From: a virus
Taxonomy: Monodnaviria; Loebvirae; Hofneiviricota; Faserviricetes; Tubulavirales; Inoviridae
Virus record (IMG/VR): IMGVR_UViG_2563366830_000001
Coordinates: 1 to 4,609 of that record
Reading direction: 5' to 3' (one strand)
Length of the DNA stretch: 4,609 nt
In this document: positions 1-4,609 of the stretch, one piece after another
Layout: every line of letters begins with the position of its first letter
Position numbering within the stretch: position 1 is the first letter of the stretch
The notes under the pieces: model-generated
Told to the model about the DNA's origin: nothing
The model's input: the letters and a program-made list of their open reading frames with translations, nothing else
Database searches by the model: none
Position numbers and translations under genes: made by a program

Positions 1-201
1 TCAATAAGTTGGAGTCATTACCCCAGAAAAGCACTTCGCATCACTCAGATATGATTTAACATAATATACATTATGCGCACCAATGGTAAGGATGGCAGAA
101 ACTGGTTGGAATCGTTGATTGACTTTATTTAATTCAAGCTCTGACCCTGCGAAAGCACATGAAGAAAATAGTAGCGTTAATGCGAGTAAAATCTTTTTCA
201 T
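1..201 (-). CDS. Small ORF with N-terminal signal peptide, partial (runs off window start); reads through dif, so possibly a phage-chromosome chimera
   Basis: Start ATG at 199-201 overlaps the pI stop as TAATG. N-terminus MKKILLALTLLFSSCAFA/GSEL has a basic n-region, hydrophobic core and AXA-type cleavage motif. Residues 41-50 (GAHNVYYVKS) are encoded by the dif 28-mer itself. Confidence 0.4.
   Translation of the reverse strand: MKKILLALTLLFSSCAFAGSELELNKVNQRFQPVSAILTIGAHNVYYVKSYLSDAKCFSGVMTPTY
54..81 (-). other. dif: dif site (XerC/XerD site-specific recombination target); probable prophage attachment junction
   Basis: Plus strand 54-81 reads ATTTAACATAATATACATTATGCGCACC. Its reverse complement, GGTGCGCATAA-TGTATA-TTATGTTAAAT, is a 28/28 match to the canonical E. 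coli dif 28-mer as I recall it (XerC arm, 6-bp central region, XerD arm). The XerC arm (71-81) faces the prophage genes; the XerD arm (54-64) faces the left flank. Confidence 0.85.
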
Positions 202-1226
202 TATTTTTTCCCCGTATAAAGCGTCACACGCTCACCATCAATAATTCCGCTCATCAACATCCCTTTATAATTAAAACTGGATGCAGGAACGGCACGCAAA
301 ACACCGGCACCGTTAACAAGAATCACAAACGCCCTGCCTTCACTGGTCATTCTCCCTGATATACGCCACTCGGTTGAAAGTGACGGTTCAGCTGGTTCTG
401 AGGGAGTATCTGGTGCAGGAGTAGCAGCGGAAGAACGAAACATGGCCGCATCACGTACATCTGTTGTAGCCAAATCTGGCGAGGGATCGCTTCGGCCAAA
501 CGTGCTGAAAAATGAGTAAATCAGCCAGCCTGACCCGATAAACATCAATGGAAAAAGCACAAGAAAGAACCTGACTTTGCCAGAATTCCAGATGCTCTGG
601 CGTTTATCTGTCTGCTTTTCATTACCGTTATTTCCTTCATAGCTTTTATAAAGTTCAAAAATATCAGGGTTATATTTATTGCGATAACTGGTGACGAGGT
701 TGCTTTTATAGATTTTGTGGCCTGAATATACGTCAATGCAGTAATGATTATTCAGGCCCAACGCTTTCAGCTTGCGCATCCGGTAAGTTGTTTCTATTTT
801 GTCTTTCAGAAAGCGAGCAATATTAGAAAGTGACTGATTTACAATAACCAAATCACAGCTAATACCCGTTTCAGGGTGCGTAAAATGACGATGTTCAGCA
901 ATAAATGATTTCTTCTCAGCCGTCATATCCTTATCGCTACCGAAGATTCGCCATGCTTCATCAATAACAATTAAATCACCAAACTGGCAAAAGCTCCCTT
1001 CCCCACCTTTAAAAGGAAAGAAATCTGCTTTAAGTACATCATCATTATCCACAACAATAATTTCTCCCGTTGCATCAGGATAACGTTCGGTGATTTTATC
1101 TTTTTGTAAACCATAAATGTTCGTCACAACTCTCCGGCCGCTGGTAAATGCAGGAATAATGACATTGCAAACGGCTTCATAACTTTTTCCTGAGCCGGGT
1201 ATGCCAATATATGCAGAAATAGCCAT
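201..1226 (-). CDS. Zot-family / filamentous phage assembly protein pI (P-loop NTPase)
   Basis: 341 aa. Walker A GIPGSGKS at residues 8-15 (nt 1182-1205); Walker B-like LIVIDEAW at residues 85-92; single predicted transmembrane helix (VRFFLVLFPLMFIGSGWLIYSFF, residues about 218-240) followed by a Pro/Ser/Thr/Ala-rich linker and a C-terminal domain. This is the architecture of the Zot/pI family. Start is 3 nt after the pVI-like stop. Confidence 0.9.
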   Translation of the reverse strand: MAISAYIGIPGSGKSYEAVCNVIIPAFTSGRRVVTNIYGLQKDKITERYPDATGEIIVVDNDDVLKADFFPFKGGEGSFCQFGDLIVIDEAWRIFGSDKDMTAEKKSFIAEHRHFTHPETGISCDLVIVNQSLSNIARFLKDKIETTYRMRKLKALGLNNHYCIDVYSGHKIYKSNLVTSYRNKYNPDIFELYKSYEGNNGNEKQTDKRQSIWNSGKVRFFLVLFPLMFIGSGWLIYSFFSTFGRSDPSPDLATTDVRDAAMFRSSAATPAPDTPSEPAEPSLSTEWRISGRMTSEGRAFVILVNGAGVLRAVPASSFNYKGMLMSGIIDGERVTLYTGKK

Positions 1227-1229
1227 AAC

Positions 1230-1517
1230 TCACCCTATAACAGGAATACGTCGAATAATAAAACGAGTAGCCATTGAGGAGATAATCATACTAATCCCCT
1301 GTGGTAATTTACTCAGGTTAATGAAGTACCAGAATCCGTCTGATAAATTGGCAAACAGCGATGAGAGATTGCTTGAATCTGGCAGTAACTCAACAAGGAT
1401 TTCAACGAAGCCCTGGACTACAAAATACAGCGCAAAGAATACGACGAATTTAATAATCAATGACCGGAATACAAAACCTAACAAAGTATTTAATGCACTA
1501 ATCAGAATCCCAAACAT
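1230..1517 (-). CDS. pVI-like minor coat protein (small hydrophobic virion protein)
   Basis: 95 aa, very hydrophobic N-terminal half with two predicted membrane segments; size, composition and position between the pIII-like and pI-like genes match gene VI of Ff phages. A strong Shine-Dalgarno AAGGAG (reverse complement of 1524-1529) sits 6 nt upstream of the ATG and overlaps the pIII-like stop (TAAGGAG). Confidence 0.6.
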   Translation of the reverse strand: MFGILISALNTLLGFVFRSLIIKFVVFFALYFVVQGFVEILVELLPDSSNLSSLFANLSDGFWYFINLSKLPQGISMIISSMATRFIIRRIPVIG

Positions 1518-1529
1518 AGTTGCACTCCT

Positions 1530-2984
1530 TTAGGCACTCAGAATAATACGGAGCGCAACAAATCCCCATATAATCAGAAATATGGTTTCTACGGCGCTTC
1601 TGTTCTGCTCAATTAACGGACAATGGGAGTCAATTCTGTACTGGTGATTAAACACGCTGAATTCAATAACGGGGCAGGATGCTGAACGAGAGCCGATGTT
1701 AAATTCGTTTGTAAAAGGCAACAAGTTAATAATTGGCGTTAAAATATCTCTTGCCGTTGGCGTTTCTTCAAGCTCAGGCTCTTTTACACCGGGATCTTCT
1801 CCCAAATCTATATTGCCATTATTTCCAGTGTCAGATCCTGAGTTGTTATTAATGGTAATATCAATATTGACGTCAGCCCCTGCACTGTCAGATACAGGTG
1901 AAAGCATATCTAATAACGTTGGAGATAGCCTAAGTTCCGACATCGCAGAAGTTACTTCAGCCGGTGAAACCTCTTTAAACGGTAAGCCGTTATAATCGGC
2001 ATTAACGGCAGCTTCAGACCACAGCTCGTTAATCATGTCGGCAAGAAGTGCTGGCGATACACTAACACTATCAAGATACTCCAGATAATCAATCATGGAC
2101 TCAATATTTCCGGCCTCCAGTACTTCCGTCATGGCTTTATATTTGGTATTGGTCCAGATAGTAAGCTCACTCTTTTCATCAATATCTTTTGCGGTGTAAT
2201 CCTCTTTTTCAGGAACGGCGCAAATCGTCGAATATCCACCATTTGACTGATTAGTCGTTTTACAAGGCGTGTTGTGATACTGATATTGCTTTCCTGCTGT
2301 TAAATAAGCAACGCTGTAATACATGGGAAGCCCTGCTACATTTTCATACATGGGAATACCTGCGGGAAATGAAGATGCGGCCGGGTTGCTATACAAGTGT
2401 GTAATCTCAGGTATTTCATAAAATGAGGAAGGATAAGTAAACTTATAATTCTGTTCAGTAAAGGATACATCTCCATTACTGTTGACAACTTTATTCGTCA
2501 CAGTGCGTTCAAAATTCGTTAGTGTTTCAGTATAAGTACGCGAGTTATAGTCATTAAGATAATTTCTGGCAATTTCAGTTGGATTATCACCATAGTAATA
2601 AATTAGCTCTTTCGAATCCTGATAATAATAAAGCGCATTATCTGGCGTGGAATATCCTGTTTCAACACCTACAACTGGAGAACCCGCATCCACATTATTA
2701 CGACTAACATGAAGGATTACCGGACTTAATTCCTGTGGTTCAAAATTAACGGTTATCGTCTTACTTTCACCACTTTGACCACTGTACGTTACTTCATATA
2801 AATTATCGGAAATCTTTTTACCGTTAGTCATTACCATTACCGAGCCGTCAGATGAACTCAAAGAAGACGGAACAAAAGATGATACAGCAGCAGCAATACC
2901 CGCCCACGTTGTGACCTTGCAAAAACTTTGACGGATTGCCGTCAATATAGAGATGTGTTGCCCGACCTTCGCCATCAGATCCAA
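1530..2984 (-). CDS. pIII-like adsorption / minor coat protein; true start codon uncertain
   Basis: 484 aa in the longest ATG-initiated frame. Gly/Ser/Asn/Asp-rich linker (NNNSGSDTGNNGNIDLGEDPG) between domains; C-terminal Cys-containing segment followed by a hydrophobic anchor (TIFLIIWGFVALRIILSA) as in gene III proteins; located immediately upstream of the pVI-like gene. The first ~45 residues are not a classical signal peptide, and a signal-like segment (KVTTWAGIAAAVSSFVPSSLS) is internal. Confidence 0.7.
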   Translation of the reverse strand: MDLMAKVGQHISILTAIRQSFCKVTTWAGIAAAVSSFVPSSLSSSDGSVMVMTNGKKISDNLYEVTYSGQSGESKTITVNFEPQELSPVILHVSRNNVDAGSPVVGVETGYSTPDNALYYYQDSKELIYYYGDNPTEIARNYLNDYNSRTYTETLTNFERTVTNKVVNSNGDVSFTEQNYKFTYPSSFYEIPEITHLYSNPAASSFPAGIPMYENVAGLPMYYSVAYLTAGKQYQYHNTPCKTTNQSNGGYSTICAVPEKEDYTAKDIDEKSELTIWTNTKYKAMTEVLEAGNIESMIDYLEYLDSVSVSPALLADMINELWSEAAVNADYNGLPFKEVSPAEVTSAMSELRLSPTLLDMLSPVSDSAGADVNIDITINNNSGSDTGNNGNIDLGEDPGVKEPELEETPTARDILTPIINLLPFTNEFNIGSRSASCPVIEFSVFNHQYRIDSHCPLIEQNRSAVETIFLIIWGFVALRIILSA

Positions 2985-3141
2985 CAGATCTTACTTTCAT
3001 AGTGGATTCATACGAACCGCGAACGGTCAACCGTTTTACTGTTTCCCACTCCACTGCACCGTCAGCATCAACGCTGACGACACTACCAGCCGGTAATGGT
3101 CGGTGTATGCAAGGTAGGATCCCGGTAAACCAGTCAATCAT
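2848..3141 (-). pseudogene. Truncated N-terminal fragment of gene II-family rolling-circle replication initiator
   Basis: 97-aa ORF beginning MIDWFTGILP... with ...HLYIDGNPSKFLQGHNV. As I recall it, M13 gene II protein starts MIDMLVLRLPF... and has ...EYHIDGD...KVLQGHNVFG at a similar distance from the N-terminus. Family-like sequence ends right after LQGHNV (about nt 2905), then 16 non-family codons and a stop; full-length gII proteins are about 400 aa. Good Shine-Dalgarno (GAGG, reverse complement near 3149-3152) upstream of the ATG at 3139-3141. Confidence 0.6.
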
Positions 3142-3308
3142 GTATCGCCTCAGAGAACAATTTTGTGACCAGAAAGCCTGTCAAGAGCTTATTAGTACCA
3201 ATTCAGTCACACAAATGTACCACCCAAGATCTTACCTCTCAAGTGATTTTGTACTGGATAAGTGACATATTTGTTCTTTTGAAATGGAGCAAAAAAGTAG
3301 GATATAGA
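3142..3308. promoter_or_regulatory. Divergent intergenic control region between replication-initiator fragment and HTH regulator (putative promoters/operators)
   Basis: 167-bp non-coding gap flanked by divergently oriented start codons (3139-3141 minus, 3309-3311 plus). Contains repeated GTGAC/GTCAC-containing motifs (3165-3169, 3206-3210, 3262-3266; AAGTGA at 3241-3246 and 3260-3265). Individual -35/-10 elements could not be assigned confidently. Confidence 0.35.
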
Positions 3309-3761
3309 ATGAGCAACAACTTCAACAGTAATGGCTACCCGGAAGAAATGGCAGAAGACATAGACTTACAGCGGGCAGAAAGGATAAAAAAAGCGATCCT
3401 AAGCAAATTCACATACGAAAGGATGGAAGAACTGTCTGGCATCAACATTGGCACACTGAAACGGATCGCAAACGCACAGAGGGATGCGAAAATCAGTGAG
3501 CTGGAAAAAATTGCTGAAATCACTCAGACAGACATATTTGAACTGATTTTTGGCTCCAGTAGCAGTGATATCTACGATTCCAGCAAACGCTTCTTTGAGA
3601 CGAGAAGTAAAGATGCGGCTCAGGCGGCTCAATTCATCATCTACAATCTTCGTACCCTTGATGATGAGGACATCCTTTGTTTGGGGAGGGTTTCGAGTGC
3701 CTTGCAAACAGCAACAACATCAAGAAAATGGGATGAGCTTTTCGGGAAGAAGAAAGGCTGA
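3309..3761 (+). CDS. XRE-family helix-turn-helix transcriptional regulator, putative prophage repressor
   Basis: 150 aa from the ATG at 3309, which has a Shine-Dalgarno (TAGGA at 3298-3302) 6 nt upstream; the longer frame from 3165 has no such signal. Segment ...TYERMEELSGINIGTLKRIANAQRDAKISELEKIAEITQTDIFELIFG has the pattern of an XRE/Cro-CI-type HTH domain. It is divergent from the replication gene, as rstR is from rstA in CTXphi. Confidence 0.75.
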   Translation: MSNNFNSNGYPEEMAEDIDLQRAERIKKAILSKFTYERMEELSGINIGTLKRIANAQRDAKISELEKIAEITQTDIFELIFGSSSSDIYDSSKRFFETRSKDAAQAAQFIIYNLRTLDDEDILCLGRVSSALQTATTSRKWDELFGKKKG

Positions 3762-3806
3762 GTCTCAGAAATGAGACAAACGTGCAGTATTACCAACACT
3801 GCACGT
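3762..3806 (+). terminator. Two adjacent inverted repeats directly after the regulator stop codon; possible terminator and/or protein-binding site
   Basis: GTCTCA-gaaa-TGAGAC (3762-3777; 6-bp stem, 4-nt loop) and ACGTGCAGT-attaccaac-ACTGCACGT (3780-3806; 9-bp perfect stem, 9-nt loop). No T-run immediately follows the second stem (TTTTT only at 3821-3825), so it is not a textbook intrinsic terminator. Confidence 0.35.
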
Positions 3807-3845
3807 TCTGGATTGAGCGATTTTTAAACACCAGAAAAAGGGTAA

Positions 3846-4244
3846 ATGATGAACAAAACAGTGTATGTACCAAGCTACTTCCAGCCTATCTACAAAGAAG
3901 TAACCATCAAAGTTCCTACCGGAAACACAAAACGATTCCTGGGTCTCATCGACATTGAAGAAAAAATCCGAAAAAGAGAAGTTATTCAGGATGGCTGGTC
4001 TGATTGCCAGATTGACGGGGAAAGACTCAATGAAGATGTTGGTCGAGCCATTAATAAACTTAATCGGGAAGGGTATGAGGTTATTTCAATAACCCCTGCT
4101 ACCTCAGGAAGCTGGGCTTATAAATATAAACAAAACAGTATTCGTAATGGAAACGGTGATGGCAGTTATGGATATGGTTACGGTTATTCATACACCGAAG
4201 GCGTTATGATTCTGGCAAAGAAAATTGAGAAAGAGGACGTCTGA
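3846..4244 (+). CDS. Hypothetical soluble protein (132 aa) with C-terminal Gly/Tyr-rich repeat; first gene of a two-gene cassette
   Basis: Uninterrupted ORF with a purine-rich ribosome-binding site (AAGGG, 3837-3841) upstream of tandem ATGs (3846, 3849). No predicted transmembrane segment. The C-terminal half (GWSDCQIDGERLNEDVGRAINKLNREGYEVISITP...) may resemble a small DUF-type domain (DUF4177 is my unverified recollection). GNGDGSYGYGYGYSY at residues 102-116. Confidence 0.7.
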   Translation: MMNKTVYVPSYFQPIYKEVTIKVPTGNTKRFLGLIDIEEKIRKREVIQDGWSDCQIDGERLNEDVGRAINKLNREGYEVISITPATSGSWAYKYKQNSIRNGNGDGSYGYGYGYSYTEGVMILAKKIEKEDV

Positions 4245-4246
4245 TA

Positions 4247-4609
4247 ATGGATTTTATCCGTAAAACTTTGGGTGGATTAAAAGCAAGTTATTATATCCGT
4301 CACTTCGTTTTTGGTGCATTAATTTCAACTTTCTTTATTTACATGTCAATGCAAAATCCTGGAGGGGTGAAGGTTGAAAATATAATTTTCTTTTTTATCA
4401 ATGCGTTACTCTACCCTTACGCAAGATTTGTATATGAGCAAATCATTGGGTTCATCATGGGTGAAAATGTCTTTTTCATCAACGTCATAGTGATGCTAAC
4501 TGCCAAGATAATTACGATGTGTTTATGCTGGATATTTTCAGTATTCATAGCGCCAGTTGGATTGATATATCTCTACTATTATCATTCAAAAGCTGATAAA
4601 CAATTATAG
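4247..4609 (+). CDS. Small multi-pass membrane protein (120 aa); second gene of the cassette
   Basis: ATG at 4247 lies 2 nt after the upstream stop (TGATAATGG) with Shine-Dalgarno AAGAGGA (4231-4237). Three to four strongly hydrophobic segments (e.g. HFVFGALISTFFIYMSM, IIFFFINALLYPYARFVYEQIIGFIMG, VFFINVIVMLTAKIITMCLCWIFSVFIAPVGLIYLYYY). Stop codon TAG at 4607-4609. Confidence 0.7.
   Translation: MDFIRKTLGGLKASYYIRHFVFGALISTFFIYMSMQNPGGVKVENIIFFFINALLYPYARFVYEQIIGFIMGENVFFINVIVMLTAKIITMCLCWIFSVFIAPVGLIYLYYYHSKADKQL

Follow-up and report, generated by a model that had tools for sequence, protein, structure and literature searches.

What follows the assembly gene pI in this prophage, and does it tell us how the phage leaves the cell? 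In the 4,609-nucleotide stretch of inovirus DNA analysed here (the window), the place where Ff-type phages encode their pIV secretin is taken by a short ORF that starts with a signal peptide and reads in frame through the dif site at the prophage end. An earlier reading of the sequence only had offered two explanations for this arrangement, namely that integration had split a phage gene and left a phage-chromosome chimera, or that the phage encodes a short secreted peptide at this point and leaves through a host secretin, as CTXφ does through EpsD. Comparison with related prophages points, almost certainly in our judgement, to a third: window 1-201 is the 5' remnant of a secretin gene belonging to the phage itself, cut by an internal deletion in a prophage of the YpfΦ/CUS type.

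Genomic context of the window

A scaffold of the E. coli assembly GCA_000408725.1 (L011 in the coordinates used below) matches the window at 100% identity, and the closed MS 196-1 genome of E. coli (CP146681.1; L001) departs from it at 2 positions. The locus is the chromosomal terminus, with ydeT/yneL on one side and hipBA on the other, and MG1655 has an empty dif site at the matching position. The MS 196-1 chromosome carries two tandem prophage copies, the window being the dif-proximal one, and window 119-3829 is 100% identical to the second copy (copy 2), the match beginning inside the secretin gene. The loci of strains SW070919 (L002) and UTI89 (L006) are also cited by label. A nucleotide search of the INPHARED phage collection with the window gave no match, because YpfΦ and CUS-1 are not deposited there as phage records, and the matches from protein searches were limited to gut inoviruses at 25-49% identity; the family was identified from the literature and from genomes of E. 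coli and of GTDB.

Anatomy of the ORF after pI

The ORF that follows pI is a chimera of five parts, derived from the secretin gene, phage DNA flanking attP, dif, the host chromosome and IS1. The features of this end of the window, and the parts of the ORF, are the following (a slash marks the deletion junction).

1..201, minus strand: 66-aa chimeric ORF, start ATG 201..199, stop TGA 3..1
1..22: right terminal inverted repeat of IS1 (IS1 = 768 bp, L001 5255-6022)
23..53: E. coli chromosomal flank of dif, on its XerD-arm side and towards yneL; 30/31 positions agree with the empty site of MG1655
54..81, minus strand: dif, exact, reconstituted at the prophage end, GGTGCGCATAA-TGTATA-TTATGTTAAAT; K-12 has the same site
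82..118: phage non-coding DNA that flanks attP in the intact phage, delimited by comparison with intact copies
118..119: junction of deletion D1, ...CGTTGA/TTGACTTT
119..201, minus strand: first 83 nt of the secretin gene (signal peptide plus 9 residues), corresponding to YPO2280/'GspD2' of YpfΦ
ORF aa 1-28: secretin-derived
ORF aa 28-40: translated non-coding phage DNA from the attP flank
ORF aa 41-50: dif-derived
ORF aa 50-60: derived from host DNA
ORF aa 60-66 and the stop codon: derived from the IS1 inverted repeat

Each segment can be traced to an uninterrupted source. The empty site of MG1655/K-12 matches window 23-81, and the left, dif-proximal end of the intact prophage in SW070919 (L002 5001-5096) agrees with window 23-118 at 100% of positions; past dif and the 37-bp flank, that prophage continues with CACTGGGCG... 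on into phage DNA. Window 67-118 is likewise 100% identical to the junction between the two MS 196-1 copies (L001 10778-10829), and window 119-201 to the 5' end of the intact secretin gene at L001 11737-12981. At the outer end, the IRL and IRR strings of IS1 lie 768 bp apart in L001 around the annotated IS1A transposase, and in relatives without IS1 at this spot the match to the window begins at position 23.

Several features on which the sequence-only reading relied were borne out. The stop codon of pI (TAA 203..201) and the start codon of the ORF overlap as TAATG, and the N-terminus, MKKILLALTLLFSSCAFA followed by GSE, carries two lysines (MKK), a hydrophobic core with a 9-residue Kyte-Doolittle maximum of 3.04 and an A-F-A cleavage motif (cleavage before G), so that a rule-based check recognises a Sec signal peptide, identical to that of the intact secretin. 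LFSSC could in principle be read as a lipoprotein motif, with an atypical F at -3, but this idea was dropped, the N-terminus being that of the secretin. The site read in frame at 54-81 is indeed dif, since the E. coli sequence GGTGCGCATAATGTATATTATGTTAAAT matches the minus strand there at 28/28 positions with zero mismatches (0/200 shuffles match), and it lies 119 bp from the pI stop. The ORF does not run off the window, as had been supposed, but ends after 66 aa at its TGA, and RefSeq holds it as a complete 'hypothetical protein' (WP_016248024.1). By our own calculation, the chance that 39 non-coding codons stay open is ~(61/64)^39 = 0.15; hence the read-through of dif needs no special explanation.

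A Pfam search with the 66-aa ORF gave no match, including to the Secretin domain (PF00263), and the N0 and N3 periplasmic domains are absent, there being 9 residues between the predicted cleavage site and the deletion junction. Of the attributes of a secretin, the ORF thus possesses the signal peptide and no other, and its predicted product, with the N0, N3 and secretin domains missing, cannot form a channel. Nonetheless, the ORF has kept its start codon, its coupling to an intact pI and, 8 nt upstream, a GGGG Shine-Dalgarno-like run, so that the product may be translated, exported and cleaved to a 48-residue peptide of no evident function; in all probability it has none.

IS1 adjoins the host flank of dif with no 9-bp target duplication (left flank CATTGAGAC, right flank CCAGAAAAG), and the stretch of host DNA from yneL to the dif flank is short by ~180-230 bp. 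An IS1-mediated adjacent deletion ending 31 bp from dif probably accounts for the loss. SW070919 also has an IS1 end at the same CATTGAGAC site, and there the host DNA between yneL and dif is retained. Joining the left flank of K-12 to window 54-201 allows 83 residues of a 92-aa variant of the ORF (P0003) to be rebuilt, every one of them in agreement, and the D1 junction therefore exists without IS1. Another variant (P0002), from one assembly, carries G41D in the chimeric ORF (codon 41 = window 81-79), which at the DNA level is a G>A substitution in base 2 of the XerC arm of dif; either dif is truly polymorphic there or the base was misread.

The intact secretin gene and deletion D1

In copy 2 of MS 196-1, a 1,245-bp gene starts at the pI stop with the same TAATG and encodes a 414-aa protein that shares its first 27 residues with the 66-aa ORF. 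This protein matches the Pfam Secretin domain (PF00263, E=2.5e-24) and, among solved structures, GspD (E=3e-16) and the pIV of f1 (7ofh, E=4e-10), and it is identical at 414/414 aa to the secretin of the tandem YpfΦ prophage of Y. pestis NCTC5923. The pI-then-secretin arrangement recurs in UTI89, SW070919 and the YpfΦ of Y. pestis, and comparison with related phages, which the sequence-only reading had named as one way to learn what follows pI, thus reveals a complete secretin in all three. The statement that there is no room for a secretin gene is accurate for the window copy and for that copy alone: the gene was removed from it by a 2,069-bp deletion and is intact in the sister copy. Nor does a secretin continue across dif at 54-81, the ORF ending at window 3..1.

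The deletion in question, D1, corresponds to L001 10830-12898 and L002 5097-7165, and took with it an 81-aa and an 82-aa ORF (hyp81 and hyp82) together with secretin codons 28-414. Its left end lies 37 bp from the dif core, and its junction at 118/119 displays no overlap microhomology. D1 is present in the dif-proximal copy only, as opposed to a second deletion, D2, which is found in both tandem copies.

Phage family and integration site

The intact unit in SW070919 spans 8,849 bp. On one strand it encodes, in order, pII (Phage_CRI), a DNA-binding protein at the pV position, small membrane and coat proteins, a 520-aa protein at the pIII position, a DUF2523 protein (pVI position), Zot/pI, the secretin and two small ORFs, followed by attP; an HTH regulator and two cargo ORFs lie on the opposite strand. 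Across pI-pVI-pIII, window 119-2911 shares 99.32% nucleotide identity with Y. pestis NCTC5923, which has two tandem prophage copies, and 99.46% with UTI89, which has a prophage at dif organised as in SW070919. UTI89 is an O18:K1:H7 strain, of the lineage where CUS-1 was described. Beside its prophage (L006 6900-6967), the DNA on the XerD-arm side of dif is not that of K-12; an SDR oxidoreductase gene and small ORFs come before it, and the prophage may thus have another inserted element as its neighbour.

The published description of YpfΦ is that of an 8.7-kb phage with 13 ORFs, a 'secretion module' formed by YPO2279-YPO2280, a regulator at YPO2273, the position of the HTH regulator in the window, and 99% identity with CUS-1 across 7.1 kb; both phages integrate at dif in tandem, YpfΦ in arrays of 2-4 copies, with an intact dif re-formed at one end and imperfect sites where copies meet (PMC4266046). 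Its secretin, encoded beside Zot, has been named 'GspD2' (PMC10354491). The same pattern of insertion is seen here: the perfect dif lies at one end of the array, while the inter-copy site and attR both read TTTCAACATAA-CGAGTCGTACA-TTATGCGCACC, an imperfect dif, attR consisting of this phage-type site joined to the K-12 right flank.

The attP region between the two copies (L001 10690-10800), located between the 120-aa cargo ORF and the 81-aa ORF, is predicted to fold on its (+) strand, the one that is packaged, into a long forked hairpin (dG -27.2 kcal/mol, z = -6.6; 0/200 shuffles as stable), a fold that the inverted repeats I2 and I3 support. The hairpin pairs GGTGCGCATAA...TTATGTTGAAA with an inverted imperfect copy, bringing together two inverted dif-like half-sites, whereas in the duplex the XerD-like arm is separated from the XerC arm by 11 nt instead of 6. 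The predicted structure is thus that of a folded single-stranded attP with inverted XerC/XerD half-sites. On sequence grounds, the element is a filamentous prophage (Inoviridae) of the YpfΦ/CUS type, a family already described.

The rest of the prophage and deletion D2

Beyond the secretin stump, the window contains the following features.

201..1226, minus strand: pI, Zot-family assembly ATPase, 341 aa, intact (PF05707, E=2.2e-26)
1230..1517, minus strand: pVI-like minor coat protein (DUF2523), 95 aa (PF10734, E=1.4e-19)
1530..2911, minus strand: pIII-like receptor-binding protein (puvA homologue by position), N-terminus truncated by D2; annotated partial
2912..3141, minus strand: pII replication initiator, first ~77 codons, C-terminus truncated by D2 (Phage_CRI, PF05144, E=1.4e-23)
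3309..3761, plus strand: divergent HTH transcriptional regulator (repressor at the RstR position), from weak HTH_3/HTH_26 matches and annotation
3846..4609, plus strand: two variable cargo ORFs, 132 aa and 120 aa, on the attP/attR side

D2 comprises 2,069 bp (L002 9959-12027) and joins the pIII-position gene, complete as the 520-aa gene at L002 8577-10139, to codon ~77 of pII at window 2911/2912. RefSeq labels both of the ORFs that it left behind as pseudogenes, the 97-aa pII remnant and the truncated pIII. The former (2848-3141, minus strand) consists of the ~77 pII residues and an out-of-frame tail, and overlaps the long ORF of the N-terminally truncated pIII-position protein (1530-2984, minus strand).

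The window copy, at 4.7 kb, is without the pII C-terminus, pV, the coat-gene region, the pIII N-terminus, the secretin and the two small ORFs, and so falls short of a full set of modules for replication, morphogenesis and secretion, which takes up about 8.7 kb with 13 ORFs. Judged by its gene content, it is a deletion derivative of the YpfΦ/CUS type and not a complete member. Apart from the secretin and the two small ORFs, copy 2 has lost the same parts, and the MS 196-1 array is therefore presumably non-productive, unable to replicate or to assemble virions.

At the other end of the prophage, the 132-aa cargo ORF has a weak DUF4177 match, and the hydrophobic 120-aa ORF has no Pfam match. Neither is found in the UTI89 or Y. 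pestis copies, whose matches stop near window 3852; the module sits where orf1/orf1a sit in CUS-1 and YPO2271/2272 in YpfΦ. Two perfect hairpins follow the regulator, GTCTCA-GAAA-TGAGAC at 3762-3777, immediately past its stop codon, and ACGTGCAGT-ATTACCAAC-ACTGCACGT at 3780-3806. They may serve as terminators or in another role in cis, for instance in packaging or as part of an origin.

Measured against the nearest intact phage, D1 and D2 are equal in length, each of exactly 2,069 bp: the match to that phage covers 8,725 bp against 4,587 bases of the query, and the difference of 4,138 is 2 x 2,069. Their junctions are also alike, CGTTGA/TTGAC for D1 and CGTTG/TGACC for D2, and CGTTG has only 5 occurrences in the 8,849-bp phage unit. 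Local alignments among the four deletion flanks scored 15-20, within the null (mean 18.8, sd 2.7), revealing no homology. Three mechanisms were considered and set aside. Slipped mispairing between two TTGAC 5-mers does not fit D1, in which both TTGA copies are retained; gyrase-type 4-nt staggered cuts with direct re-ligation would have left D1 with one TTGA copy only; and symmetric loss from the antiparallel arms of a rod-shaped single-stranded DNA, as a single event, is argued against by the sister copy with D2 alone. We treat the equal lengths as a coincidence, though one that would merit a look across other deletion derivatives.

Distribution of the junctions

In a set of 5,426 complete E. 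coli genomes, the phage pIII/pII region occurs in about 113, while the D1 junction (118/119) and the D2 junction (2911/2912) each occur in one, that of MS 196-1. The intact pI-secretin boundary is found at 100% identity in many strains, including UTI89 and NU14. In a larger protein collection, the exact 66-aa protein is encoded on 35 contigs, from isolates and human gut metagenomes, and has four close variants. The D1 junction is thus real and confined to a small set of genomes, and the recurrence of the protein could reflect clonal inheritance or retention. Four loci (L007, L010, L012 and L014) are single-copy arrays made of the doubly deleted unit alone, with the secretin nowhere in the array; homologous recombination between shared segments probably reduced two-copy arrays to this state.

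Origin of the secretin stump

The segment boundaries were established at base level, the intact secretin in the adjacent copy and in relatives and the family identity with YpfΦ were shown as well, and no evidence that contradicts the anatomy of the chimera was encountered. In the reading that we favour, a YpfΦ/CUS-type prophage was inserted at E. coli dif by the host XerCD recombinases, the start of its secretin gene being coupled to the pI stop through TAATG. D1 joined codon 28 of the secretin to a point 37 bp inside the phage end, and translation from the kept secretin start would run through attP-flank DNA, dif and 31 bp of host DNA to a stop in the IS1 repeat, IS1 having been placed 31 bp from dif probably by an associated deletion. 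The likely order of events is prophage array first, then D1, then IS1.

An alternative that we regard as unlikely, while according it some weight, is that the deletion took place in an episomal 4.7-kb miniphage, which XerCD then inserted at the free dif beside a resident copy. The doubly deleted copy is after all the dif-proximal one, where a perfect dif stays available, it has kept the whole attP hairpin region, and tandem arrays are known to be dynamic in the YpfΦ/CUS family (PMC4266046). However, pII is truncated in both copies, so that such a miniphage would have depended on a helper phage, of which these genomes show no sign; incoming YpfΦ genomes, moreover, are reported to insert preferentially between copies (PMC4266046), and deletion in situ is the simpler course.

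More doubtful still is the notion that the 4.7-kb element is a satellite-like mini-prophage, with a role like that of RS1 beside CTXφ, generated by a non-random deletion process. The idea stems from the common length of 2,069 bp and the likeness of the two junctions, CGTTG(A)/(T)TGAC, and the element does retain attP, the regulator, the cargo ORFs and the pIII'-pVI-pI segment; were it true, the secretin stump would be a by-product of that process.

The three remaining explanations have, in our estimation, hardly any chance of being right. The first holds that Xer integration itself cut the secretin gene, with attP inside its 5' end and the gene intact only in the circular form or between copies. 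The stump does lie 37 bp from dif, and in MS 196-1 the intact secretin is in the internal copy. But the dif-proximal copies of SW070919, UTI89 and Y. pestis run from dif through the 37-bp flank and ~2 kb with two ORFs to a complete secretin, the attP hairpin sits between the 120-aa and 81-aa ORFs, and there is no dif-like sequence at the 118/119 breakpoint. The attP site is intergenic and ~2.1 kb away from the secretin start, and therefore Xer recombination did not cut the gene. The sequence-only reading was thus right to suspect a split phage gene and a chimeric ORF, composed as it turns out of phage, dif, host and IS1 DNA, and wrong in naming integration as the cause: the distance to attP, the 37 bp of attP flank that were kept and the intact relatives at the same dif all lead to an internal deletion.

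The second, that the phage encodes a short secreted peptide after pI and its virions exit by a host secretin in the manner of CTXφ, gains some plausibility from the window copy, which is without a secretin, and from the four arrays that have none at all. It is refuted by the 414-aa secretin encoded in the next copy, and indeed at this place in all intact relatives, including YpfΦ; residues 28-66 of the ORF come from non-coding phage DNA, dif, the host and IS1, and the copies without a secretin are also without the pII C-terminus, pV and the coat-gene region, which suggests that they make no virions. The third, that the junction is an artefact of collapsed tandem repeats, draws on the tendency of near-identical tandem copies and IS1 to break draft assemblies, and on GCA_000408725.1, where the ORF lies at two scaffold ends, and it founders on the presence of the junction in the closed CP146681.1, in assemblies of several independent isolates and in contigs from gut metagenomes; in some of these, hipA and the ORF lie on one and the same contig.

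Returning to the stump of the phage's own secretin, it follows that WP_016248024.1 should be regarded as a pseudogene stump fused to dif, host and IS1 DNA. It is not to be taken as a secreted phage effector, nor as evidence that the phage uses a host secretin, and the expectation that the ORF would be informative on phage exit gives way to gene decay in a known prophage, with no new exit strategy. The YpfΦ/CUS-1 family and its own secretin have already been described, and nothing here is new in kind; this is the ordinary decay of a known prophage family. The case illustrates how a dif-integrated filamentous prophage decays through internal deletions and IS1 activity while the chromosome retains a perfect dif.

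Comparison with known systems

The closest known systems are YpfΦ (CUS-2, Y. pestis) and CUS-1, with which the element shares integration at dif, tandem copies, a folded attP and gene order, at 99.3-99.5% nucleotide identity over pI-pVI-pIII and with a 100% identical secretin. In contrast to them, the window copy bears two 2,069-bp deletions and adjoins IS1, and its regulator is unlike that of UTI89 and Y. pestis, as are its two cargo ORFs on the attP side. With regard to the Ff phages (f1/M13), the intact gene resembles pIV/GspD in its position after pI, its size (414 aa), its signal peptide and its Secretin domain, whereas the window ORF retains the signal peptide and 9 residues only. CTXφ of V. 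cholerae has in common with the element XerCD/dif integration via a folded single-stranded attP, tandem arrays, an RstR-like divergent regulator and a Zot-family pI, and the attP hairpin predicted here matches the CTX-type single-stranded substrate proposed for YpfΦ. CTXφ, however, is known to lack a secretin gene and to use the EpsD of its host, while the YpfΦ/CUS family brings a secretin of its own, encoded directly after pI in the intact copies of MS 196-1, SW070919, UTI89 and Y. pestis.
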